A DNA stretch of 64,000 bases from an uncultured Solirubrobacterales bacterium (GCA_963728045.1 CAVSIE010000003.1:2231-66230), one strand, 5' to 3'. Positions 35,860 through 48,648 are shown, counted from the first letter of the stretch. Made by a program: numbers and translations. The notes: generated by a model not told the origin, from the letters alone.

Positions 35860-37164
35860 CTACGCCGCTTGCGCGAGCGGTGCTTCCACTGCGCACGCGG
35901 CCCGAATCGAATCAGCGGTAATTGAGGTGAGCCGGCGCAAATCCCGCTCGGAGATCGAGAGCGGGGGCATGAGGACGACGACGTCGCTGAGCGGGCGGAT
36001 GATGGCGCCGCGCTCGCGCGCCTCCAGCGTCACCCTGTGCCCGAGGCGCTGGGCGGGATCGTGCTCGCCGAGGTCGATTCCGACCATGAAGCCATAGCCA
36101 CGCACCTCTGCCACCTCTGGCATCGCCCCGACCTCGGCCAGCAGCTCCTCCAGCAGCTCGATCTTGGGCTGGAGGCGCTCCAGGGTCCGCTCCCGCTCGA
36201 AGGCGTCGAGGCTGGCGATCGCGGCGGCGCAGGCGAGCGGGTTGCCGGTGTAGGTGTGGCCGTGGAAGAAGGTGCGGAACTCCTCGGGGTCGCCGAGGAA
36301 GCCCTCGTAGATGCGTTCGGTCGCCAGCGTCGCCGCCAGCGGCAGGTAGCCGCCGGTGAGCCCCTTGGCGACGCAGAGCAGGTCGGGGGAGATCTCTTCG
36401 TGGTCGCAGGCGAACATCGTCCCGGTGCGGCCGAACCCGGTCGCCACCTCGTCGCAGATCAGGAGCACGCCGAAGCGGTCGCAGAGCTCGCGCACGGCGC
36501 GCAGGTAGCCCGGCGGCTGGATCAGCATCCCGGCAGCGCCCTGGACCAGCGGCTCGACGATCACCGCGGCGATCTCCTCCTCGTGGGCGGCGAGCACCCG
36601 CTCGAGGTCGCCGGCGTCGCCGGGCTCGGCGGCGTGGTTCTCGAAGAGCAGCGGCCTGTAGGTGGAGTGGAAGAGCTCGATCCCCCCGACGGCGACGGCT
36701 CCGAGCGTGTCGCCGTGGTAGGAGTGCCGCAGGTGGACGAAGGAGGTGCGGCGGGTGTGCTGGCCGCCACGCTGCTGCTGGTACTGGAAGGCCATCTTCA
36801 GCGCGATCTCGACCGCGGTCGAGCCGGACTCCGAGTAGAAGACGCGCGAGAGCCCCTGCGGCGCGATCTCGACCAGACGGGCGGCGAGCTCCGTGGCGCA
36901 GGGGTGGGCGAGGCCGAGCGTGGTCGAGTGGGCGACCTTGGCGAGCTGCTCGCGCACGGCCGCGTCGATGTCGGGGTGGCGGTGACCGTGGACGTTGCAC
37001 CAGAGCGAGGAGACGCCGTCGATGTAGCGACTCCCGTCCGTCGCGATCAGGTCCGTGCCCTCACCGCGCTCGATCGTCAGCGGCTCTTCCTCGCACCAGC
37101 CCTGCTGCTGCGTGAACGGGTGCCAGAGATGGTCCCGATCGAGCTGCGCGTGGTCCACCGACAT
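35860..37164 (-). CDS. bioA: Adenosylmethionine-8-amino-7-oxononanoate aminotransferase
   Basis: [11 protein letters not shown]..., [34 protein letters not shown] (PLP lysine). Confidence 0.9.
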
Positions 37165-37205
37165 CGCCGCCACCGACCCTAGCCCCGCGCTCGGCGGCAA
37201 GACAC

Positions 37206-38412: not shown

Positions 38413-39651
38413 ATGAACGCAACGAGTGCCGAGGTCGCGAGCCCGCTCGCGCACCTCTCGGCGGAGCAGCTCGACGAGCTTGCCCGCGAGCTCGACGAGA
38501 TCCGCGACCGGACGTTCGCCGACCTCGGCGAACGCGACCGCCGCTACATCGAGAGCATGATCGCGATGCAGCGCCGCCTGGCGGTGATGGGGCGCGTGCT
38601 GCTGCTCGGCGCGCGCTACCGCCCCGCCAAGGTCGCCGGCGCCGCCGCGCTCTCGATGGCGAAGATCCTCGAGAACATGGAGATCGGGCACAACGTCCTG
38701 CACGGGCAGTGGGACTGGATGAACGACCCCCAGATCAACTCCTCCACCTGGGACTGGGACACCGCCTCGACCGCGGAGGCGTGGAAGCACTCGCACAACT
38801 ACGTGCACCACACCTTCACCAACATCCTCGGCAAGGACAAGGACCTCGGCTACGAGATCATGCGGATCGACCCGCAGCAGAAGTGGCGCCCCGTCTACCT
38901 CCTGCAGCCGCTCTACAACCTCCTGCTGGCGGCGTTCTTCGAGTGGGGCGTGGCGGTCCACGACCTCGACTTCGAGGCGATCCGGACGGGCCGCAAGTCC
39001 AAGGCGCAGATCAAGCGCGAGCTCGCCGGCATCCGCGAGAAGGCGAAGAACCAGGTAGTCAAGGACTACATCGCCTGGCCGCTGCTGAGCGGCTTGGCGA
39101 TGGCGGCCCTGGACGCCGGTCTCGAGGTTCGTAGTGGCGGCGGGCGGCGACGGGGCGGCCTGGCAGGGGTCCTAAAGCGGGCTCTTCGTGGCGGGGGGCG
39201 CTCCTACCGCGCGGCGGCGTCGGCAAACGCGACCGCGAACATCGCCCGCAACGTTTGGGCCTACGCGATCATCTTCTGCGGCCACTTCCCAGACCAGACC
39301 CACACCTTCAGGCCCGAGGAGGTCGAGGACGAGAGTCGTGGCGGCTGGTACGTGCGCCAGCTGACCGGGGCGGCGAACATCGAGGGCAGCCCGCTCTTCC
39401 ACGTCGCCAGCGGCAACCTCGGCTACCAGGTCGAGCACCATCTCTTCCCGGACCTGCCGAGCACCCGCTATGCGGAGATCGCGCCCCAGGTCAAGCAAGT
39501 CTGCGAGCGCTACGGGCTTCCGTACAACAGCGGCCCCTTCGGCCAACAGCTGGGGATGGTGCAGCGGACGATCCTGCGACTCGCCTTCCCGGGAGGCGCG
39601 CCGCGGCCGAAGCCCGGCCCCTACCGTGGGGAGGACCACCCGGCTCTGTGA
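38413..39651 (+). CDS. Membrane fatty-acid (acyl-CoA) desaturase, DesA3-like
   Basis: Three histidine boxes are present: HNVLH, HNYVHH and QVEHHLFP. Confidence 0.85.
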   Translation: MNATSAEVASPLAHLSAEQLDELARELDEIRDRTFADLGERDRRYIESMIAMQRRLAVMGRVLLLGARYRPAKVAGAAALSMAKILENMEIGHNVLHGQWDWMNDPQINSSTWDWDTASTAEAWKHSHNYVHHTFTNILGKDKDLGYEIMRIDPQQKWRPVYLLQPLYNLLLAAFFEWGVAVHDLDFEAIRTGRKSKAQIKRELAGIREKAKNQVVKDYIAWPLLSGLAMAALDAGLEVRSGGGRRRGGLAGVLKRALRGGGRSYRAAASANATANIARNVWAYAIIFCGHFPDQTHTFRPEEVEDESRGGWYVRQLTGAANIEGSPLFHVASGNLGYQVEHHLFPDLPSTRYAEIAPQVKQVCERYGLPYNSGPFGQQLGMVQRTILRLAFPGGAPRPKPGPYRGEDHPAL

Positions 39652-39662
39652 TATCGCTCACA
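39647..39662 (+). repeat. Direct repeat, left copy (TGTGATATCGCTCACA)
   Basis: Identical to 44720-44735. It contains the desaturase stop codon and has the form TGTGA-N6-TCACA. Confidence 0.9.
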
Positions 39663-39790
39663 TATATCCCTTCTCTGTAGAAGCGGAATCCATCCCTGAT
39701 CGGCCCTAGCTTCCTGCCTCGTCCAGATCAAAACGGCCGGGGCGCCGCGCTAACGGCCCCCGGCCTGGCACCGAAAGGCGGAACCTTCCG

Positions 39791-40036
39791 ATGCAGGCCA
39801 ACCTTAGTCCGCGCTGCGAGCGCGAGGATGAAGCGGTTCAGCGCGCCGTTCTCAGTCTCGTCCTCGCTGCGCATCCAGAGTCCCTGACGATCCCCGAACT
39901 TGCCGCCGAGATAGATGAAGGGGACACCGCAGAGCGCGCCGTGGTCGCTCTCGTCGGCGTCGGCTTGCTCGACTGCGGTGGCATCTCTGTCCAGCCCAGC
40001 GCCGCTGCTATCCGCTTCGACCAGCTCGGCGTATGA
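39791..40036 (+). CDS. Small hypothetical protein (possible winged helix)
   Basis: 81 aa. Its stop overlaps the next start as ATGA. LTIPELAAEIDEGDTAERAVVALVGVGLL is wHTH-like. Confidence 0.4.
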   Translation: MQANLSPRCEREDEAVQRAVLSLVLAAHPESLTIPELAAEIDEGDTAERAVVALVGVGLLDCGGISVQPSAAAIRFDQLGV

Positions 40037-40293
40037 CTGTCGCGGAGCGGTTCGGCGCGAACCTTCGCGACTGCCGGAAGCGAGTCGGCCTATCTCAGGA
40101 AGAGACCGCCGTGCGCGCCTCGCTGCATCGCACCGCCGTCGGGCAAATCGAGCGGGCCGAACGGGTCTGCCGCATAGACACCCTTGTGAAGCTCGCCGGG
40201 GCGCTGGAGGTTGAACCCGGCGAGCTGCTCACCCGCCTCGAATGGGAGCCGGGCGAGATGCGGGCGGGCTCCTTCAAGGAGGCACCAGCGTGA
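40033..40293 (+). CDS. XRE-family HTH protein
   Basis: LSQEETAVRASLHRTAVGQIERAERVCRIDTLVKLAGAL. Confidence 0.7.
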   Translation: MTVAERFGANLRDCRKRVGLSQEETAVRASLHRTAVGQIERAERVCRIDTLVKLAGALEVEPGELLTRLEWEPGEMRAGSFKEAPA

Positions 40294-41057
40294 CCCGACG
40301 ACTGCTCGCGTACCCTGCTCCCAGAATGGCGTCGAGCGTTCTTCCCTCCAAGGAACGAGTCAATAAGGCGGGGCGAATGCTCGCCAGATGGCTAGACGGC
40401 GAGGTTGTGCTGTCCGACAACGAATTGCAGGAGTTAATCGTCCCGGTTCTTCAATGGCGGGCGCAGCACACCTATCCGATGTCGCTCGCGATGCCGAGCC
40501 TTCGAAAATGGGCGGAGCGATACTCGACCACCGACGTTCAGCCTTCTCAGCGCTTGAAGCGGCTGCCGCAGATCATCAACAAGCTTCAGCGCCATCCCGA
40601 CATGAAGCTTGCTCGCATGCAGGACATTGGAGGCGCTCGGGTCGTGCTTTCAAGCCGGGATGAGGTCGAAAAGATGCATCAACGCATTCGGCTGTATTGG
40701 GAGATCGAGCGCGTTAAGGACTGGCGAGAGGAGGGCCGGCCAGACACCGGCTACCGAGCGCTGCACCTCATGGTGCCGAAGCGGGACGATCTCAGCGGCG
40801 AGGAGCGGATCATCGAGCTTCAGCTTCGAACAAAAACTGAGCACCGCTGGTCGCAGGTCATCATGGCCACCGGGGAGCGCCTCGGCTACTCTCTGAGAGA
40901 TGGATATGGACCGCCTGACTTGTTGCTCTACTTCAAGCTGGCGGCAGAGATCCTTGCCATCCGGGATACAGGGGCCGAGCCGGAGAGGGATCTCCGGAAA
41001 CGCTTCATCGCCGCTCGTCGGGAGGCGAGTCCCTACTTCGTGTCGAAAGAAGGCTAG
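40290..41057 (+). CDS. RelA/SpoT-domain small alarmone synthetase-like protein (toxSAS candidate)
   Basis: All four synthetase motifs are visible: RLKRLPQIINKLQR, MQDIGGARVV, GYRALHLMV and ELQLRTKTEHRWSQV. GTG 40290 overlaps the XRE stop as GTGA. ATG 40326 is an alternative start. Confidence 0.75.
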   Translation: MTRRLLAYPAPRMASSVLPSKERVNKAGRMLARWLDGEVVLSDNELQELIVPVLQWRAQHTYPMSLAMPSLRKWAERYSTTDVQPSQRLKRLPQIINKLQRHPDMKLARMQDIGGARVVLSSRDEVEKMHQRIRLYWEIERVKDWREEGRPDTGYRALHLMVPKRDDLSGEERIIELQLRTKTEHRWSQVIMATGERLGYSLRDGYGPPDLLLYFKLAAEILAIRDTGAEPERDLRKRFIAARREASPYFVSKEG

Positions 41058-41059
41058 CG

Positions 41060-41308
41060 ATGCCAGACCACCAATTTCTGCTGATTTACAACGCAAAGAC
41101 CCAGCGTCTGATCGACGCAAAGGATCTCGGTAGCGATACGCCGTTGGCTGTTGAGGCCTACGCAGAATGCGAGCGGCGCTACAGCGGCAATCAGGACATC
41201 GAGGTTCTTCTGATCGGCTCGGACTCACTCGACACGATCAAGAAGACCCATGGCCACTATTTCGGGAATGTCGATCCAGTTGAGTTCTTCCGGTCAGTCA
41301 CGGTCTAA
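41060..41308 (+). CDS. Small acidic protein, candidate cognate antitoxin/immunity partner
   Basis: The 82-aa ORF starts 2 nt after the RSH stop. No recognised domain. Confidence 0.45.
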   Translation: MPDHQFLLIYNAKTQRLIDAKDLGSDTPLAVEAYAECERRYSGNQDIEVLLIGSDSLDTIKKTHGHYFGNVDPVEFFRSVTV

Positions 41309-41373
41309 GCAGAAGACGGCCAAAGGGCTTGAGATTCCGGTCCCGACCAAAGGCGACTTCGATGACGCCCTGT

Positions 41374-41580
41374 CTAAGGTCGCTCCGCCAGCAAGTCGTA
41401 AACGCCCTGGCGAGAAAGATCGGCCTCAGAAGCGATCTGGGTGATCGAGACTCCCGCCTTCTGCGCTTGCTGACAGAAGCCCCGTAGGTCTTCGGTCGCC
41501 TGTCGCTTGGCGGCATCGGCCCTCTCGCGCCGCTTGGCAGCGCCGCGGATGCTTCGCAGGATGCTGGCCTGCTCGCTCAT
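41374..41580 (-). CDS. Small HTH protein coupled to the transposase
   Basis: ATG 41580 overlaps the transposase stop as ATGA. GVSITQIASEADLSRQGVYDLL is an HTH. Confidence 0.5.
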   Translation of the reverse strand: MSEQASILRSIRGAAKRRERADAAKRQATEDLRGFCQQAQKAGVSITQIASEADLSRQGVYDLLAERP

Positions 41581-42521
41581 CGGCCAGCCGCCGTATCGAG
41601 CAACGAGTGGAACATCGACCGCTCGCCCCGGAATCGTTCGTTGTAGCGCCAGGCGTACTCGTCTAGATAGGACTGAAGCCACTTCTGGGAGACCTTCTTG
41701 TAGGTGCCTCGCATCCCGGTCTTGAGGTTGCCGAAGAAGCCCTCGATCGTGTTCGTATGAACGTCTCCGCGCACGTAGAGGCCAGCGGAGTGATTGATGA
41801 CGCTATGGCCCGCGTATTCGCGCCCGACCGGCCTGTAGGGCCGCCAGTCGTCCGTGAAGAGGATCGAGTCCGGGTTGACGTTGGCCCGCACGGCTCCACT
41901 TAGCGGCTCACCTCGGCGCGATTTGATGATTCGCAGCTTGACCCGCCCGCCTCGCTCGACCATGCCGAGAACCGAGACCTGACGCTCGCGCCACTGAGCG
42001 GCTTCGGTCTGAGTCATCTTCGGCCCACGGGGGCGGCCATGCACACCGGTCTCGTCTACCTCGACCTTGCCCCTCAGCGGTCGGGCATCGTCTTTCATCA
42101 GCTCGTTGCGAATCTTGTTGAACATGCGCCAGGCGGTCTTGTAATGGACTCCAAGCTCCCGCTCTAGCTGCTTGGCAGATATGCCGCAGCGAGTGCTTGT
42201 CATCAAGTACATCGCGTGAAACCAGAGCCGCAGCGAAGTCGATGACTTGGCGAAGATCGTCCCCGCCGTGGGATGAACGTGGTGTCCGCAGCCGGTGCAA
42301 GTCCAAGACTGGCGGCCCTGCTTGGTCGCGTAGCGCTTGAAGACGCGCTCTGAGCCGCACTTGGGGCAATGGGCGTGTTCCCCGTCGCGGGAGTAGCGGG
42401 TGCGCCACAGATGCTCCAGGCAGGCGGCATCATCGGGGAACTCAGCCAGAAACTCGGTGACCGAGTAGTCCGAGGTCGAAGACTTGGCTCGACGCGGTTG
42501 GTGGCGATTGGCGGGCGGCAC
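41577..42521 (-). CDS. IS1595-family (ISXO2-like) DDE transposase
   Basis: N-terminal zinc ribbon CPKCGS...CTGCGH, then GISAKQLERELGVHYKTAWRMFNKIR and the VEVDETGVHG... DDE core. Confidence 0.85.
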   Translation of the reverse strand: MPPANRHQPRRAKSSTSDYSVTEFLAEFPDDAACLEHLWRTRYSRDGEHAHCPKCGSERVFKRYATKQGRQSWTCTGCGHHVHPTAGTIFAKSSTSLRLWFHAMYLMTSTRCGISAKQLERELGVHYKTAWRMFNKIRNELMKDDARPLRGKVEVDETGVHGRPRGPKMTQTEAAQWRERQVSVLGMVERGGRVKLRIIKSRRGEPLSGAVRANVNPDSILFTDDWRPYRPVGREYAGHSVINHSAGLYVRGDVHTNTIEGFFGNLKTGMRGTYKKVSQKWLQSYLDEYAWRYNERFRGERSMFHSLLDTAAGR

Positions 42522-42523
42522 GG

Positions 42524-42567
42524 TGTCAAGCTACTTGACATCAAGACGTTTGTCAAGCCGCTTGACA
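42524..42567. promoter_or_regulatory. Two 17-bp palindromes TGTCAAG-N3-CTTGACA upstream of the transposase
   Basis: Located at 42524-42540 and 42551-42567. Each half is a TTGACA -35-like hexamer. Confidence 0.5.
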
Positions 42568-42729
42568 GTCCAAGCGCTCGAACTCCATTCGAGACGCTTC
42601 CGAACGCGTGTTTGCAGCGCAAACGCTTCAGGCCCATAGCCGCCCCTGGATTGGCTATGCTCTTGAAAGCTCATCCGCCTTAGGCGGAAGGAGTTCTAGG
42701 AGCCGTCTCGAAAGGGGCGGCTCCGGTCT

Positions 42730-43221
42730 TTAGAGAGAGAACGGACCTGCGGCGACGTAATCGCGCTGAAGCTTTTCCCGCTGCCTGCTGCTTGGGCAGA
42801 ATGCCGTAACGAGCATGGCGTAAGGGTCCTCCCGCTTCCTGCGAATCCTCAAGATCACGAGGAACTCAAAGGTGGGCAAAGCCACGGCAATGCTGTTACC
42901 CCCCTTGCTGGCAGGCCGCTCTTGCTCCCAGCACAGGACACGCTCGCTGCCGCAGGCAGAAATCATGGGTCCGATCCAAGGAACTCGCTCGCACCTTCTT
43001 AGATCTGGATTGCGGTCCTCGCTCGAACGGTCTACCTGCTCTGAGATCACATGCCAGAAGCCGTCTGGCTTGCCCTTGACTACAGGCATTTTGCGGCGCC
43101 CAACATTCAGGCCAAAGAAGGACGCCTGGCGAAGGTCGCTCTCAAAGCATCGGTAGAGAGCATCGCAATAGTCATCCCAGTCGCCGTCCAGCGACACCAC
43201 CTCGGGAAGCCAATCGGTCAA
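42730..43221 (-). CDS. Hypothetical 163-aa protein coupled to the DUF3800 gene
   Basis: Its start overlaps the DUF3800 stop by 4 nt. No domain recognised. A hairpin lies just downstream at about 42695-42725. Confidence 0.55.
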   Translation of the reverse strand: MTDWLPEVVSLDGDWDDYCDALYRCFESDLRQASFFGLNVGRRKMPVVKGKPDGFWHVISEQVDRSSEDRNPDLRRCERVPWIGPMISACGSERVLCWEQERPASKGGNSIAVALPTFEFLVILRIRRKREDPYAMLVTAFCPSSRQREKLQRDYVAAGPFSL

Positions 43222-43952
43222 GCATCCACTCCTGGCCGGCCATGCCAGTGGAACAGGTTGAACTTTGCCTCCGTTTTGGCGGTGTTGAACTTGAAGCGCG
43301 CGCCGGAGCGAGCTTCGATCCGCCGAGCGATGGCCCGCTTGGCTTGGCTGCTTCCTCCGTCGCGGTTGCCGTGGGAAACGGCTCCGAGAAGAATGTCGGC
43401 AAGCTGGATGGCTTGGACTTCATGCGAGCGAACGGTTTGGACCCGCTTCACCGTCTCGCCGCTGAAGTCATGCAGGCCCGAACGAAGGATCTCCTCAAGC
43501 TTGCGGACCTTCGGGCCGCCTTGGGTGTCCTTGATATCGAGGTAGATACGGAACTCCTCATCTCGGCTTAGGAGCTGGGAGAGGAGCAGGTAATACATCT
43601 TGTAATACCACTCGTCGTGAGTCTGGGAAAAAGCGCTGTGGTCGAGTGACGTCTTGTCTGCAATAACCGCTCGAAAGCGAAGATCCGTCGTGTCGAAGAA
43701 GAAGTCGACCAGAGCCTCGTAGAGCGGCAGCCACTTCGGGGAAGCCTTGCCCCACTTGACCTCCGCCTGGGCCGGGATGCCGGCGGCCTGCTTGATTTCG
43801 CCGATTCGAGCAGCGATCTCGCGCGCTTGACCTGCGGGGACCACAAGAGCACCGAGAACCATGATCGGCTGCCCGTCCGTGGGAAGGTGGCAACTCTCGT
43901 CGCAAAAAATGCTGAATGCAGGCGTCAATGTGCGAGCAACTGTATCCAGCAC
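43218..43952 (-). CDS. DUF3800-domain protein
   Basis: N-terminal IFCDES acidic motif and C-terminal HEVQAIQLADILLGAV motif, both characteristic of DUF3800. Confidence 0.65.
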   Translation of the reverse strand: MLDTVARTLTPAFSIFCDESCHLPTDGQPIMVLGALVVPAGQAREIAARIGEIKQAAGIPAQAEVKWGKASPKWLPLYEALVDFFFDTTDLRFRAVIADKTSLDHSAFSQTHDEWYYKMYYLLLSQLLSRDEEFRIYLDIKDTQGGPKVRKLEEILRSGLHDFSGETVKRVQTVRSHEVQAIQLADILLGAVSHGNRDGGSSQAKRAIARRIEARSGARFKFNTAKTEAKFNLFHWHGRPGVDA

Positions 43953-43979
43953 TGCGCTTTGAATATCCGGAAGTACCCT

Positions 43980-44594
43980 ATGTGCGCTTTGAGCAGAGCA
44001 GGGCCAGCTAAGCAGTCGGCAGAAGCGACGGCGGTCTATCGGGCCATTGGCCGCTACACGGTCGCGTTCTCCTACCTCGTCTCTGAAATGCGCGCCGGAA
44101 TCGAAACCCGCTTCGATTCTGACTCAGAGATCGCGCAACTTGCCCTAGGCGAGGCTTTCGCGTCGCAGATCACCAACGCATTCTTCGCGATCTGCGAATA
44201 CTCGGTGGAACTGGATGACGAAGAGCGGCAGGTAGCTATTCGCCTCAAGAAAGAAGTCAATGACGCCATCAAGGAGCGCAACGACATCGCCCATGGCGAC
44301 TGGCACGTCCGTTCGTGGCGAAAGCCGGAGCCTCACATGGTCCGGACTAAGCCCGGCCGAAGAGCTGGGGCAGTCGTAGAAAAGGCGCTGCCGGTTGACG
44401 AACTTGAAGAGCTTTCGGACGCGCTCGAAGACCTGGCTGAGACTGTCATCGAGTTTGCCCTTCTCTGCTTTGCCATTCATCCCCACGCAGACAACATCGA
44501 GGGCGAGGTCCGGGTCAGGGACGTTTACCGCTTCCGGAATCACCGGGTTGTGAGAGAGGGACGCTACGCCGCTTCCCACCCCTGGGACGACTAG
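43980..44594 (+). CDS. HEPN-like protein (Rx4H motif)
   Basis: KERNDIAHGDW contains R-x4-H in a predicted helical context. The start is uncertain because only 27 bp separate it from the divergent DUF3800 start. Confidence 0.5.
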   Translation: MCALSRAGPAKQSAEATAVYRAIGRYTVAFSYLVSEMRAGIETRFDSDSEIAQLALGEAFASQITNAFFAICEYSVELDDEERQVAIRLKKEVNDAIKERNDIAHGDWHVRSWRKPEPHMVRTKPGRRAGAVVEKALPVDELEELSDALEDLAETVIEFALLCFAIHPHADNIEGEVRVRDVYRFRNHRVVREGRYAASHPWDD

Positions 44595-44719
44595 CCGGGG
44601 CTTTTCCTCCCGCTCCCAATCCGCCTCGATCTCAGCTTCTGCCTCGGCCTGTTCTAGCCAGGTTTCATCGTCTTCGGGCTCCAAAGCGCGGTCCTCAGCT
44701 TCTACAGAGAAGGGATATA

Positions 44720-44735
44720 TGTGATATCGCTCACA
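44720..44735 (+). repeat. Direct repeat, right copy (TGTGATATCGCTCACA)
   Basis: Identical to 39647-39662 and immediately follows the right IR. Confidence 0.9.
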
Positions 44736-44736
44736 T

Positions 44737-44768
44737 GAGCAACTATTTCGTTTGAGAAATAGTTGCTC
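44737..44768. promoter_or_regulatory. Perfect 13-bp-arm palindrome upstream of marR (candidate MarR operator, or terminator of the desaturase operon before the insertion)
   Basis: GAGCAACTATTTC-GTTTGA-GAAATAGTTGCTC, ending 19 nt before the marR ATG. Confidence 0.5.
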
Positions 44769-44786
44769 TAGTGCAAATATATTCGC

Positions 44787-45326
44787 ATGCAAGCGAGCGA
44801 GATCGCCGCGATCGTCGATGAGGTGGCCACACCCGAAGCGACCCCGGCTGAGCAGGAGACGGCGGCGCGGCTGAGCGCGCTGCTGCGGCACCTCTTCCTC
44901 TACGACCGCGGAAACATGCTGCGGGTGATCGAGGAGAGCGGCCTCTCGGCGACCCAGTGCAAGGTGCTGCTGGAGCTGGGCGGCCTTGGCGAGGCGACCG
45001 CTCCGCGGCAGGTGAGCGACCTGGCGGAGGCCTTCGGCGTCTCGGTTCCCTCGATGAGCAGGGCGATCGACGGCCTGGTCAAGAAGCGGTTGGCGACCAG
45101 GGTCGAGGACGCAGAGGACCGGCGCGTGCGTCGCGTCGCGATCACCGCCAGGGGCAAGCAGCTGGTCGACACCATGCTGGTCGTCCGCCAGGCGGGGATG
45201 GAGGCTTTTGCCGCGAGCCTGACGGCGGCCCAGCGGCGCAAGCTCGACGCCGCGGTCGACTCGCTGATGGACCGCGAGGACATCGCCGAGGCCTACGAGC
45301 TGCTCAAGGAGGTGAAGCCGGCTTGA
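44787..45326 (+). CDS. MarR-family transcriptional regulator
   Basis: LSATQCKVLLELG...VSDLAEAFGVSVPSMSRAIDGLVKKRLATRVEDAEDRRV. Confidence 0.85.
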   Translation: MQASEIAAIVDEVATPEATPAEQETAARLSALLRHLFLYDRGNMLRVIEESGLSATQCKVLLELGGLGEATAPRQVSDLAEAFGVSVPSMSRAIDGLVKKRLATRVEDAEDRRVRRVAITARGKQLVDTMLVVRQAGMEAFAASLTAAQRRKLDAAVDSLMDREDIAEAYELLKEVKPA

Positions 45327-46795
45327 CCCGCTACCGCCACCTGATCACCGACGAGAACCGCAAGTGGTGGACGCTCGGGGCGATGTGCTTCGCCCTGTTC
45401 ATGATCATGCTCGACAACACGGTCGTGAACGTGGCGCTGCCCTCGATCCAGCGCGACCTCGGCGCCTCGCTCTCCGCCCTGGAGTGGACCGTCAACGGCT
45501 ACACGCTCTCCTTCGCGGTGTTGCTGGCGACCGGCGGACGGCTCGGCGACATCTTCGGCCGCCGCCGCATGTTCATCTTCGGCGTCGTCATCTTCGCCCT
45601 CTCCTCGGCGACCGCGGGCCTGGCCGCCGACACGACCTCGCTCGTGGTCAGCCGCGTGGTGCAGGGCGTCGGCGCCGCGTTGATGATGCCGGCGACGCTC
45701 TCGATCGTCACCGACGCCTTCCCGCCGAGCGAGCGCGGCAAGGCGATGGGCACCTGGGCCGGGGTCTCGGCTCTGGCTCTCGCCGTCGGTCCGGTCCTCG
45801 GCGGCTTCCTCACCGAGCACGTCAGCTGGCGGGCGATCTTCTATCTCAACATCCCGGTCGCGATCGGCGCCGTGCTGGCGGCGCTGTTCGCGGTGCGCGA
45901 GTCACGCGACACCACGGTCGGGCGGGAGGTCGACTACGCCGGCGTGGCGGTGCTGACCGCGTCCCTGACGGCGCTGATCCTCGCCCTGGTCGAGGGCAAC
46001 GCCTGGGGCTGGGGTTCACCCGAAGTCGTCGCCCTGCTGGTCGGCGCCGGGTTGGGGCTGGCGGCCTTCGTCGCGATCGAGCTGCGGGTCAAGGCGCCGA
46101 TGGTCGAGTTCCACTTCTTCTCCGACCGCAACTTCGTCGGCGCCGTCGTGGTGGCGCTGATCGTCTCCTTCGCGATGCTGGGCGTTTTCTTCTTCCTCGC
46201 CCTCTACATGCAGAACATCCTCGGCTACTCCGCGCTGGAGGCGGGGATCCGGTTCCTGCCTTCGACCCTGATGATCGTCATCGTGGCGCCGCTCGCCGGG
46301 CGGTTCTCCGACCGGATCGGCCCGCGCTGGCTGATCGTCGCCGGGCTCGTCGTGGTCGCCGCCTCACTGCTCAGCTTCAGCGGCATCGCGGTCGACTCCA
46401 GCTACGGCGAGCTGCTGCCGGGCTTCATGCTGCTAGGCATCGGCATCGCATTGACGATGTCACCAATGACCAGCGCCGCGATGAACGCGGTTCCGGTGGA
46501 AAAGGCCGGAATCGCCTCCGGCGTGCTCTCGATGTTCCGGATGGTCGGCGGCAGCCTCGGCGTCGCAGTCACCGGCGCGATCTTCCAGGGCGCCGTCGGC
46601 AATCCGGAGACGGCTTCACCAGTCGACTTCGTCGACGCGCTCGGCCACGCGATGACGGTCTCCGCCGCGGTCGCTCTCAGCGGCGCTGTCGTGGCGGCGC
46701 TCGCGATCCGCGCCAGGCGGGAGGGGATCAGCATCGAGACTGCCGAGGCGGAGGTCCAGCCCGGTGGCGCGCTAGCCGCGCGCGGGGCCGAGTAG
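45323..46795 (+). CDS. MFS drug:H+ antiporter (DHA2/EmrB-QacA type, 14 TM)
   Basis: TTG 45323 overlaps the marR stop. The protein contains WWTLGAMCFALFMIMLDNTVVNVALPSIQRDLGAS. Confidence 0.85.
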   Translation: MTRYRHLITDENRKWWTLGAMCFALFMIMLDNTVVNVALPSIQRDLGASLSALEWTVNGYTLSFAVLLATGGRLGDIFGRRRMFIFGVVIFALSSATAGLAADTTSLVVSRVVQGVGAALMMPATLSIVTDAFPPSERGKAMGTWAGVSALALAVGPVLGGFLTEHVSWRAIFYLNIPVAIGAVLAALFAVRESRDTTVGREVDYAGVAVLTASLTALILALVEGNAWGWGSPEVVALLVGAGLGLAAFVAIELRVKAPMVEFHFFSDRNFVGAVVVALIVSFAMLGVFFFLALYMQNILGYSALEAGIRFLPSTLMIVIVAPLAGRFSDRIGPRWLIVAGLVVVAASLLSFSGIAVDSSYGELLPGFMLLGIGIALTMSPMTSAAMNAVPVEKAGIASGVLSMFRMVGGSLGVAVTGAIFQGAVGNPETASPVDFVDALGHAMTVSAAVALSGAVVAALAIRARREGISIETAEAEVQPGGALAARGAE

Positions 46796-47440
46796 CCCCC
46801 ACTCGCCGGGCCAGCTGTCCGGGTCGGAGGGATCGACCCAGGGGAGCGTCGCTACGTCGATGCCGCCGAGGGTGGCGATCGTCTCGCGGTTGGACAGCTC
46901 GATCTCACCAGGATCCTCTGGCCAGGGCGTAAAGATGACACTGGTGACCCGCAGGCCCGCGGACCGCGCCGCCTCGATCGTCAGCAGGGTGTGGTCGATC
47001 GCGCCCAGGCCGGGCGGGGAGGCGATCGCCACCGGCATCGCCAGGTCGACGATCAGGTCCCTGACCAGGTAGTCGAGGCTGAGCGGCGTGAGCAGGCCGC
47101 CGACCCCCTCGCAGATGAAGGTGTCCGCTCCCTCCTGGGCGATCCGGGCTGCCTCGAGCAGGGCCTCTCGCTCGATCTCCTCGCCCACCATCGCGGCGGC
47201 GAGGTGGGGTGAGACGGGGGGCCCGTAGCGAAAGGGAGCGATCTCCTCGTCGCTCTGGTCCGAGCGGGCGGCGCGGCGCAGGATCGCGTGATCGGGTTCA
47301 CCCGGCTCGTCGAGGCCGGTCAGCGCAGGCTTGAAGACCTTCACCCGCTGGCCCTCCGCGGCGAAGCTGTGCGCGACCATGGCGGCGGCGTAGGTCTTGC
47401 CGACCTCAGTCCCCGTGCCAGTTACGAAGACGCCGCGCAT
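46772..47440 (-). CDS. bioD: Dethiobiotin synthetase
   Basis: VFVTGTGTEVGKT P-loop, at the end of the bioB-bioF-bioD string. Confidence 0.85.
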   Translation of the reverse strand: MRGVFVTGTGTEVGKTYAAAMVAHSFAAEGQRVKVFKPALTGLDEPGEPDHAILRRAARSDQSDEEIAPFRYGPPVSPHLAAAMVGEEIEREALLEAARIAQEGADTFICEGVGGLLTPLSLDYLVRDLIVDLAMPVAIASPPGLGAIDHTLLTIEAARSAGLRVTSVIFTPWPEDPGEIELSNRETIATLGGIDVATLPWVDPSDPDSWPGEWGLLGPARG

Positions 47441-47445
47441 CGCCG

Positions 47446-48648
47446 CTAGGCGGCGGCGAGCGCCGGCGACTCGGAGGGCCGTGCGGGGGTGATCTCCAGC
47501 TCCCGTGCCGCGGCGCCGACCAGCTTCGCCGCCCGCTCCAGCTCACCGCTGCGGTGGGTCGCCATCGCGGTGAAGCGCAGCCGCGAGGAGCCCTCGGGCA
47601 CCGTCGGCGGGCGGATTCCCTGTGCGAAGACCCCACGCTCGAGCGCCCGTTCGCTCAACTCCATCGTCGGCGCGGCGTCACCGATCTCCACCGGGACGAT
47701 CTGGGTCGATGAGCCGCCCACGGTGAGGCCCTCGCCGGCGAGCGCGTTGCGCAGCGTCTCCGCGTTGGCCTGCAGGCGCTCGACCCGGTGGGGATGGGAC
47801 TCGAGCAACTCCAGCGCGGCCAGCGCCGCGGCGGCCGCGGTCGGCGGCGGCGCCGTCGAGAAGATGAAGGGACGGGCGGTGTTGAGGAGGTACTCGACCA
47901 GCTCTCCGCTCCCACAGACATAGGCCCCGTAGGAGCCCAGCGCCTTTCCGAGCGTGCCGACGACGACATCGACCTCCTCGCTGAGACCGGCGGCGGCGAC
48001 CGAGCCGCGGCCGCCCGGGCCGAGCGCGCCGGTGGCGTGCGCCTCGTCGACCATCAGCCTGCACCCGTGCCGGCGGGCCAGCACCACCAGTTGCTCCAGC
48101 GGCGCCACGTCGCCGTCCATCGAGAAGACGCCGTCGGTGACGACCAGCGAGGCCCGCTCGCCGGCCTCGCGCAGCCCCCAGGCGAGGTGCTCGAGGTCGC
48201 CGTGGCGGTAGACGAAGGTCTCGGCGCGGGAGAGGCGGCAGCCGTCGACGATGCTGGCGTGGTTGAGCTCGTCGGAGAAGACCACCTCATCACGCCCGGC
48301 AAGCGCTGCGATCGTGCCGGTGTTCGCCAGGTAGCCGGAGCCGAACAGCAGCGAGGCCTCGTAGCCCTTGAACTCGGCGAGCCGCTCCTCGAGGCTGCGA
48401 TGCGGCTGCATGTTGCCGGAGATCAGCCGCGAGGCGCCGGCGCCGGCTCCCCAGCGCATCGCCGCCTCGGCCGCGGCGCCGCGGACACGCGGGTGGTCGG
48501 CCAGCCCCAGGTAGTTGTTCGAGCAGAGCAGCAGCACCGGCCGCCCGTCGAGCAGCACGCGCGGTCCTTGCGGGCCGCTGACGAGTCGCAGCCGCCGATG
48601 GAGCCCCTGGTCGCGGAGCTCCTCCAGCCGATCTGCGATGTCGGTCAT
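47446..48648 (-). CDS. bioF: 8-amino-7-oxononanoate synthase
   Basis: SNNYLGL, DEAHATG, TLGKALGSYG (PLP lysine). Confidence 0.9.
   Translation of the reverse strand: MTDIADRLEELRDQGLHRRLRLVSGPQGPRVLLDGRPVLLLCSNNYLGLADHPRVRGAAAEAAMRWGAGAGASRLISGNMQPHRSLEERLAEFKGYEASLLFGSGYLANTGTIAALAGRDEVVFSDELNHASIVDGCRLSRAETFVYRHGDLEHLAWGLREAGERASLVVTDGVFSMDGDVAPLEQLVVLARRHGCRLMVDEAHATGALGPGGRGSVAAAGLSEEVDVVVGTLGKALGSYGAYVCGSGELVEYLLNTARPFIFSTAPPPTAAAAALAALELLESHPHRVERLQANAETLRNALAGEGLTVGGSSTQIVPVEIGDAAPTMELSERALERGVFAQGIRPPTVPEGSSRLRFTAMATHRSGELERAAKLVGAAARELEITPARPSESPALAAA

Follow-up and report, generated by a model that had tools for sequence, protein, structure and literature searches.

An IS1595-family transporter insertion sequence of Solirubrobacterales that very probably targets a palindrome and duplicates 8 bp of it

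Introduction

Between a fatty-acid desaturase gene and a marR-family regulator gene, in a 64,000-nucleotide stretch of DNA from an uncultured Solirubrobacterales bacterium (GCA_963728045.1 CAVSIE010000003.1:2231-66230; the whole stretch is called the window, and positions are counted from its first letter), lies an island of about 5 kb. A reading made without database searches (the sequence-only reading) had described it as a mobile island with an IS1595-type transposase and passenger genes, ended by a 22-bp inverted repeat (IR) and flanked by a directly repeated 16-mer that matches the CRP/FNR-family consensus. A target duplication of 16 bp would be unusually long for a DDE transposase, and the locus raises the question of where the element ends, how many base pairs it duplicates and what it recognises.

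It is concluded here that the island is very probably an intact 5065-bp transporter insertion sequence (IS) of the IS1595 family, specific for targets of the form YGTG/A-N6-T/CACR (slashes delimit the 8 bp taken to be duplicated), and that the palindrome is rebuilt at both of its junctions.

Results and discussion

The 22-mer TATATCCCTTCTCTGTAGAAGC was found at 39663-39684 and its exact reverse complement at 44698-44719, and no match appeared in 100 shuffled controls, although up to 3 mismatches were permitted. TGTGATATCGCTCACA occurs exactly at 39647-39662 and again at 44720-44735. Both repeats are thus as the sequence-only reading had them, except that the direct repeat has a full length of 17 nt (TGTGATATCGCTCACAT). 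A repeat finder extended the inverted repeat outwards into the direct repeat (30-nt arms of 97% identity at 39658-39687 and 44695-44724). Two further observations of that reading also held: the desaturase ORF (open reading frame) ends at 39651 with its TGA inside the left TGTGA, so that the stop codon is preserved, and the G+C content, about 0.70 in the flanks, is lowered to 0.57-0.62 within the island. The island encodes a single zinc-ribbon DDE transposase of IS1595 type and has eight other credible ORFs.

Relatives of the element were collected by a scan of one genome per species, which gave 377 that were confirmed. The best 80 of these, with transposases 72-94% identical to that of the window, were analysed; all 80 are in Solirubrobacterales or other Actinomycetota metagenome-assembled genomes (MAGs), and the only database name found for the relatives was the generic "IS1595 family transposase". 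Together with the window this made 81 copies (loci are given L numbers below), and both IR ends were located in 79 of them, at element lengths of 2.5-5.8 kb. A further 114 junctions were taken from metagenomes.

To define the duplication, the 16 bases outside the 22-mer were numbered 1 to 16 and counted over the 79 elements. The outer GTG was present in 76-79 of them and the outer CAC in 77-78, position 5, the first base of the central N8, was A in 73, and position 12, its last, was T in 71. Position 1 on the left and position 16 on the right were not shared between the two copies, which matched in 37 and 44 elements respectively. The base counts of the inner copies matched each other (G 51 and A 28 on the left, C 51 and T 28 on the right), which fits inner copies that extend the inverted repeat. 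Non-consensus bases common to both copies all fell within positions 5-12 (e.g. L044, L051, L054, L058, L061, L074, L076 and L077), and where a half-site deviated by several bases it was the outer, chromosomal one, the inner one staying CACR or YGTG. L013, for example, occupies the non-canonical target cccg/CCGATTTG/gacg and has perfect CACG/CGTG tips and 22/22 IRs; L027 and L185 show the same outer-only deviation, and L067 keeps its TGTG although its two flanks are unrelated. The metagenome junctions gave a similar picture. Ninety-five of the 114 were canonical, eight kept the CAC tip beside an outer triplet other than GTG (some of these 2-3 bases off), and only two showed the reverse pattern, both being single-base changes from CAC to CAT. 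Across the family the tips 5'-CAC...GTG-3' are invariant.

IS ends usually consist of an invariant terminal trinucleotide, a variable triplet and a conserved binding block. The register of these ends could be compared with that of ISAcr1, an IS1595-family element of Acidiphilium plasmids, the limits of which could be read unambiguously from copies in different plasmids (four in all, a perfect 8-bp duplication being present in three of them): TATCC stands at positions 7-11 from the tip both in the ISAcr1 IR (CTTGCCTATCC) and in the IR of the present family (CACGCCTATCC). Members of the IS1595 family usually have 8-bp duplications (PMC8101967).

It seems very likely, therefore, on the strength of about ten non-canonical junctions, the ISAcr1 register and the precedent of the family, that the target duplication is the canonical 8 bp (positions 5-12), with the tip of the element at CAC. 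The direct repeat would appear to be 16-17 bp long because the tips CACR...YGTG adjoin identical target bases. The 16-bp duplication of the sequence-only reading accordingly gives way to one of 8 bp, ATATCGCT, the additional bases being the tips CACA/TGTG beside like bases of the target. In the window the IS can be placed with good confidence at 39659-44723, a length of 5065 bp, with perfect 26-bp IRs and ATATCGCT at both ends. TGTG on the left and CACA(T) on the right belong to the chromosome, and their identity with the IS tips follows from the family's choice of YGTG-N8-CACR targets. No DDE enzyme making a 16-bp duplication is then needed and the apparent anomaly is removed; the same mimicry of tips by targets can inflate the apparent duplication of any IS that prefers targets resembling its ends.

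The alternative, that the element ends at the 22-bp IR and that a 14-16-bp target (GTGA-N6-TCAC) is duplicated with a stagger unusually long for a DDE enzyme, agrees with the identical 16-mers in the window and with the identity of at least 14 of the 16 bases in most of the 79 elements, and it predicts the empty site equally well. It is nevertheless improbable. The failure of positions 1 and 16 to be duplicated across the family is against it, as are the CAC/GTG tips retained beside non-matching outer triplets in L013, L027, L185 and five metagenome junctions, the TGTG kept beside the unrelated right flank of L067, and the ISAcr1 register, which sets the tip at CAC with an 8-bp duplication. 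It would also make the three terminal bases of the element variable (R-N-N), which is atypical of IS ends, and CAC is invariant instead.

The target chosen by the family is almost always YGTG/A-N6-T/CACR, the six central bases varying from site to site. In 1.12 Mb of sequence, GTG-N8-CAC sites next to an IS had both the A and the T at the ends of the N8 in 130 of 152 cases, compared with 24 of 207 free sites, and none of the 152 lacked both. The 78 well-defined genomic elements represent 22 groups of orthologous chromosomal sites. Most groups with several members contain both orientations, and at least 29 independent events are needed to account for them; among the metagenome junctions there are 68 distinct 8-mers. 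Landing sites were found between the desaturase gene and marR-MFS, between TetR and MMPL genes, beside purU and a gene for an Rpf-like transglycosylase, and next to PAS, acyltransferase, Rieske and DUF1802 genes. At ten genome loci and in several metagenome contigs two insertions abut, so that the right IR (IR-R, in transposase orientation), 16 bp and a left IR (IR-L) follow one another with the same 8-mer repeated; a regenerated palindrome would allow a second element to use the same site in this way.

Such a bias could also arise by selection alone, if the transposase had only a weak preference and insertions survived only in harmless intergenic palindromes. All insertions whose surroundings were examined do lie between genes or at gene ends, and selection against gene disruption must act to some degree. 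As the whole explanation it is very unlikely, since the complete A...T pair is missing from 183 of the 207 free GTG-N8-CAC sites and not one IS-adjacent site lacks both bases, since the vast number of harmless non-palindromic intergenic positions is never used, and since abutting second insertions reuse the regenerated site exactly.

In four loci two GTGA-N6-TCAC sites were observed 3 bp apart, one of them occupied (L046:8092-8140, L055:8190-8238, L056:8798-8846 and L051:4380-4411).

Searches for exact sequence matches to the transposase and the desaturase of the window found none, and relatives were reached through homologue searches. The sequence-only reading had predicted an empty site, and this was found exactly in L084, a relative with a 97% identical desaturase that carries precisely TGTGATATCGCTCACA and reads ...GGCTCTGTGATATCGCTCACATGA...; seven more relatives are empty as well. 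In the contigs of all eight (desaturase 83-97% identical) the next gene begins about 47-65 bp after the desaturase gene, with nothing between, and a single GTGA-N6-TCAC overlaps the desaturase stop. The next gene is marR in seven of the eight and the MFS transporter gene in L086, where marR is absent and TGTGA-N6-TCACG is retained after the desaturase stop (L086:4243-4288). The suggested search for further copies also bore fruit, many being found at other sites: a transposase 96% identical to that of the window is present in a soil-metagenome contig, at a different site (target-site duplication ATCGCCGT) and with different cargo. L001, with a transposase of 94% identity, occupies the same desaturase/marR site in the opposite orientation, and its backbone genes are 88-89% identical to those of the window compared with 91-95% for the flanks. 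From these comparisons of sequences it is concluded that the element has been recently mobile.

That it might instead be an old, fixed and vertically inherited feature which no longer moves, its palindromes and IRs being conserved chromosomal elements, gains something from the one or two copies retained per genome and from the recurrence of the same 22 or so orthologous sites. This is hardly credible in view of the empty sites in the closest relatives, the two orientations at one site, the 96% identical transposase elsewhere with other cargo, the perfect 26-bp IRs, perfect duplication and intact transposase ORF of the window copy, and a G+C content 10 points below that of the flanks. Least probable of all is a site-specific integrative island with direct repeats that are attL and attR, formed by recombinase exchange at a shared att core: the sequence-specific target, recurrent orthologous sites and flanking repeat are as in integrase-borne islands, but a tyrosine or serine recombinase domain was detected in none of the ORFs, the members have no enzyme in common other than the DDE transposase, the terminal inverted repeats have the usual character of IS ends, and the repeated 8-mer differs from site to site (the 68 distinct N8 above) where an att core needs identity of element and target. 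A composite transposon was considered as well and rejected, there being a single transposase gene and a single pair of IRs and no two flanking IS copies.

The transposase matched PF12762 (DDE_Tnp_IS1595; E 5e-34, covering 2-153 of 153 positions), NF033547 (192.5 bits against a cutoff of 75) and, for the zinc ribbon, PF12760 (26.6 bits against a cutoff of 25.4, the four Cys being invariant in the alignment), in agreement with the single IS1595-type transposase noticed from the sequence alone. A zinc ribbon at the N-terminus is a feature of every IS1595 group apart from IS1016. D156, D224/D225 and E-x7-K align with the relatives. The protein shows E-x7-K and E288-x3-R292, and the element ends read CACGCCTATC. 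The signatures of the ISNwi1 and ISSod11 subgroups are DDEK+ER4 or DDHK+ER4R7, with ends nnnGcnTATC or ggnnatTAT; no subgroup is assigned to the present element.

The backbone of the family consists of four genes, those for the transposase, a translationally coupled 68-residue protein (orf68), an XRE-type helix-turn-helix (HTH) regulator and an 81-aa protein. In transposase orientation their order is IR, cargo slot A, transposase, orf68, cargo slot B, XRE-HTH with the 81-aa gene, and IR, the last two genes being on the strand opposite to the transposase. In 77 of 78 elements the start codon of orf68 (ATG or GTG) has a 4-nt overlap with the stop of the transposase gene. The C-terminal HTH of orf68 is more than 90% conserved, and the gene was also predicted by an independent gene caller in L094. 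The XRE-HTH gene was found in about 65 of the 78 members and the 81-aa ORF, which possibly has a winged-helix fold, in about 60. A relaxed-threshold Pfam search with orf68, the 81-aa ORF and two cargo ORFs (the 82-aa ORF and orf204) gave only sub-threshold hints of HTH or HEPN domains.

These features suggest a simple scheme for transposition. The DDE transposase would bind the conserved inner part of the 26-bp IRs and cut at the invariant CAC/GTG tips, cleaving after ...YGTG-3' at the IS ends; each strand of the target would be cut behind a GTG, the two cuts lying 8 bp apart, and joining of the ends with this 8-bp stagger would duplicate ATATCGCT, so that a full GTGA-N6-TCAC site is formed anew at each junction. 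The sequence around the scissile sites would then be alike in donor and target, and an intrinsic reading of tip-like DNA would account simply for part of the specificity. The extra requirement for A and T and the dyad symmetry suggest a dimeric reader, either orf68 or a host CRP-type protein. The target may thus be chosen by the transposase reading a tip-like GTG^, by orf68 or by a host protein of CRP type. The geometry would spare the desaturase stop codon, leave the marR promoter region and its palindrome with an intact upstream site, and put about 130 bp between the regulatory operon of the element and a regenerated site. Neither of the adjoining genes is disrupted by insertion at the target, and every insertion restores the target at its two junctions.

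The identity of the palindrome was also considered. At the level of sequence the target logo YGTGA-N6-TCACR matches the CRP/FNR consensus TGTGA-N6-TCACA, which is that of CRP/GlxR-type regulators, the mycobacterial CRP motif being similar (PMC4117774). In the eight empty orthologous sites the half-sites are conserved and the spacers vary (TATCGC, TAGTGC, TGTGGG, CGTAAC, TATAGC and TTAGAG), the pattern expected of a site for a dimeric transcription factor. One landing site precedes the gene for the Rpf-like transglycosylase; among the CRP targets of M. tuberculosis is rpfA (PMC2844151). The logo and the conservation of half-sites are alike in CRP/GlxR operators and in the family target, and the family motif could equally be read by a protein that the element encodes. 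The evidence that the palindrome is a CRP-family operator is thus only suggestive. A literature search found no report of an IS that targets TGTGA/TCACA or CRP sites, the nearest case being IS5 and CRP-regulated promoters. It is a tentative and rather doubtful proposal, then, that the family homes to CRP-type operators, captured by orf68 or host CRP rather than by the transposase alone, with some 20 regenerating landing pads per genome at which soil Actinomycetota exchange defence cargo. If it is true, the element inserts into promoters without breaking host regulation and places its regulatory operon and candidate cargo beside a cAMP/CRP-responsive site.

Several points weigh against the interpretation given here. 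An 8-bp duplication with 3-bp tips is not formally separable by sequence from a 14-bp duplication because nearly every target has GTG/CAC, L027 has a mismatch at the first base of its 8-mer, and the inner tip is mutated in L033 and L066. Opposite orientations at one site could stem from recombination between IRs, a reported phenomenon (PMC3004938), rather than from independent insertion. Transposition was not directly observed, and there is a single copy within the 64-kb window. A tblastn search with E. coli CRP against the window and the loci collected by then gave no homologue, and the PADLOC assignments of the cargo described below are to candidate systems.

The cargo of the window element may be described as candidate defence and toxin modules, and protection against phage by these genes is possible. 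The RelA/SpoT-domain gene overlaps the XRE-HTH gene as called, and its true start probably lies downstream of 40293. A RelA/SpoT synthetase domain of this kind is characteristic of PDC-S33 and of toxic small alarmone synthetase modules. The 349-position PDC-S33 profile is split over this 271-aa ORF (6-219) and the following 82-aa ORF (264-332) and is not represented by a single protein. The genes for the PDC-M04A- and PDC-M04B-like proteins are adjacent with a 4-nt overlap, and orf204 recurs beside the same IR in 6-10 other elements. RelA/SpoT cargo is common to the window element, L020 and L005, and modules of the window were seen in other elements (L020, L005 and L055), sometimes in the opposite slot and inverted. 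Turnover of cargo is high, with 129 cargo clusters in the two slots of the 78 elements. The majority of 86 representative cargo proteins had no Pfam match; those with domains included DNA methylases, NYN (PADLOC HEC-09), HNH, SocA/Panacea, Clp protease, GAF, DUF3800 and RelA/SpoT proteins. Three of the 86 representatives were rve-type (IS481/IS3) transposases, that is, other IS nested inside.

The PDC systems of PADLOC are 145 candidate systems chosen by guilt-by-embedding (bioRxiv 10.1101/2024.01.29.577857). About 4 kb of passengers, all toxin- or defence-like, had been proposed from the sequence. Candidate modules of this kind are indeed present, but about 1.2 kb of that length is the conserved backbone of small genes of DNA-binding type (the 81-aa ORF, XRE-HTH and orf68), and "all" was too strong, as the PADLOC matches are candidates and one cargo ORF has no significant match. 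The idea of a mobile defence-gene shuttle holds for the most part: the element is an IR-bounded, cargo-carrying, mobile member of the IS1595 family with candidate defence cargo. Across the family the cargo (methylases, NYN, HNH or HEPN-like nucleases, RelA/SpoT proteins and PADLOC candidates) forms a catalogue in which new defence or toxin systems may be sought.

Some members of the family depart from the common plan. Each element has one transposase except L062 (L062:4204-6936), where two head-to-head copies, 64% and 76% identical to that of the window, were observed, the sole such locus of the 80. Abutting IRs were considered as tandem complete elements and this was rejected, as a second transposase was found only in L062 and most partners also lack backbone genes; judged by gene content the abutting partners are remnants or non-autonomous derivatives. 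At L185:8395-9999 there is a 1.6-kb element with the same IRs and palindrome and a single 289-aa ORF, without a transposase, in which the outer right half-site is CGC, not CAC; this is a non-autonomous, cassette-type (MIC-like) derivative. In L122:110-166 (Ga0157370_10393456) the IR ends are 5 bp apart, not 8 (GGGATAAG TGTG ACGCC CACA CTTATCCC), for which a small deletion or the junction of an IR-IR circle or dimer could be responsible. In L007 (L007:4760-7975) the right-hand 8-mer is the reverse complement of the left-hand one (GAGTCAGGTC and GACCTGACTC), and beyond it lie a second IR-L and a third. This arrangement suggests that elements sharing the site have recombined or that an inversion has taken place. 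In five metagenome loci (L161, L211, L212, L174 and L197) the inner IR ATCCCTTCTCTGTAGAAGC is preceded by ...GACGGGAAGT, without the CAC tip and the palindrome; perhaps these are IR-like repeats of internal position, or else a related element whose ends differ. A scan of viral contigs with the IR pattern gave one match, in AT-rich DNA without the palindrome, which was attributed to chance, and so no sign of carriage by phage.

The features of the island and its borders are collected in Table 1. Just upstream of the marR ATG, in window 44732-44786, stand a TATATT box and the palindrome GAGCAACTATTTC-N-GAAATAGTTGCTC, and both are conserved among the relatives that have marR. The palindrome is probably the MarR operator/promoter region, being an auto-operator, and the marR transcript is probably leaderless or has a very short leader. 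The centre of the CRP-like site is about 60 bp upstream of the marR ATG. The island sits in a biotin-synthesis neighbourhood (window 35860-37200 and 46772-48648) that is syntenic in all relatives inspected and includes genes for a class III aminotransferase (bioA-like), a dethiobiotin synthase-like AAA_26 protein and a bioF-like aminotransferase, with a radical-SAM BATS (bioB-like) gene just past 48648.

Table 1 Features of the island and its borders (positions in the window)
Feature	Position	Strand	Remarks
Fatty-acid desaturase gene (left flank)	38413..39651	+	PF00487 homologues; TGA stop 39649-39651 within target palindrome, preserved
Outer left target TGTG	39647..39650	.	Chromosomal, not duplicated
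Left copy of probable 8-bp target-site duplication ATATCGCT	39651..39658	.	
Terminal IR, 26 bp, CACATATATCCCTTCTCTGTAGAAGC	39659..39684	+	Distal to transposase start; IR-R in transposase orientation
81-aa backbone protein	39791..40036	+	Sub-threshold HTH_20
XRE/Cro-type HTH regulator, backbone, 86 aa	40033..40293	+	HTH_3 E 5e-11; like restriction-modification (R-M) control proteins
RelA/SpoT-domain nucleotide pyrophosphokinase, slot B	40242..41057	+	PF04607 E 4.5e-15; PDC-S33 E 7.7e-46, profile 6-219/349
82-aa ORF, slot B	41060..41308	+	C-terminal part of PDC-S33, E 1.2e-6, profile 264-332/349
orf68, backbone, 68 aa, coiled-coil and C-terminal HTH	41374..41580	-	ATG overlaps transposase stop (ATGA); weak HTH_7
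IS1595-family DDE transposase, 314 aa, N-terminal zinc ribbon	41577..42521	-	D156 / D224-D225 / E-x7-K positions intact
PDC-M04B-like protein, 163 aa, slot A	42730..43221	-	E 2.2e-35
DUF3800 / PDC-M04A-like protein, 244 aa, slot A	43218..43952	-	PF12686 E 1.5e-13; PDC-M04A E 9.2e-81
204-aa ORF (orf204), slot A	43980..44594	+	R-x4-H motif (ERNDIAH); HEPN_RiboL-PSP E 0.012, below threshold
Terminal IR, 26 bp	44698..44723	-	Exact reverse complement of 39659-39684; IR-L in transposase orientation
Right copy of probable 8-bp target-site duplication ATATCGCT	44724..44731	.	
Outer right target CACA	44732..44735	.	Chromosomal, not duplicated
Palindrome, 18-bp arms, GAGCAACTATTTC...GAAATAGTTGCTC	44732..44773	.	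Between target and marR; kept in empty-site relatives; undamaged by insertion
marR-family regulator gene (right flank), then MFS transporter gene	44787..45326	+	

Comparison with known systems

The elements form a large uncharacterised clade of the IS1595 family in abundant, little-studied soil bacteria, with thousands of metagenomic homologues and a clear target rule. The 26-bp ends and the transposase, with or without orf68, could become a tool for site-directed insertion in high-G+C Actinomycetota.

Short, repeated, intergenic palindromic motifs are also the targets of IS1397 and ISKpn1 (REP/BIME sequences) and of IS621, which limits damage to the host. These have transposases of other families (IS3 and IS110), other motifs and no cargo, and none of them is known to regenerate its full motif at both junctions through mimicry by the tips. 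Tn7-like "safe-site" transposons are likewise site-selective beside conserved genes, non-disruptive and loaded with variable, defence-type cargo, and use DNA-binding target selectors. Tn7 needs TnsABC plus TnsD/E, or CRISPR, makes a 5-bp duplication and has one or a few attachment sites, whereas the present family has a single DDE transposase, perhaps aided by orf68, and about 20 or more palindromic landing sites per genome.

Within the IS1595 family, ISAcr1 resembles the new elements in its transposase (35-39% identical), its TATCC register at positions 7-11 and its 8-bp duplication. It differs in its size of about 1.1 kb, in consisting of a transposase only with no cargo, in having a histidine in place of the third acidic residue, and in that the four targets inspected have no GTG/CAC flanks.

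The new elements also resemble the transporter IS (tIS) of the ISNwi1 and ISNha5 type, which share the DDE_Tnp_IS1595 transposase with zinc ribbon, the terminal IRs, the 8-bp duplication and the internal passengers. In D-D-E-x7-K and E-x3-R the new elements may be similar to the ISNwi1 group. Like those tIS, the window element holds passengers unrelated to transposition inside one pair of IS ends with one transposase; passenger-carrying tIS were described by Siguier, Gagnevin and Chandler (2009), as cited in PMC3129680. IS1595 members are usually single-gene elements (PMC8101967), unlike the present ones with three conserved accessory genes beside the transposase. In further contrast to known tIS, the family inserts almost exclusively into a palindrome of 14-16 bp matching its own tips, has two defined cargo slots with very high turnover, and is so far confined to Solirubrobacterales and other Actinomycetota MAGs. 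The family thus differs from known tIS in the stringent palindromic targeting with tip mimicry, the set of accessory genes and the two-slot cargo.

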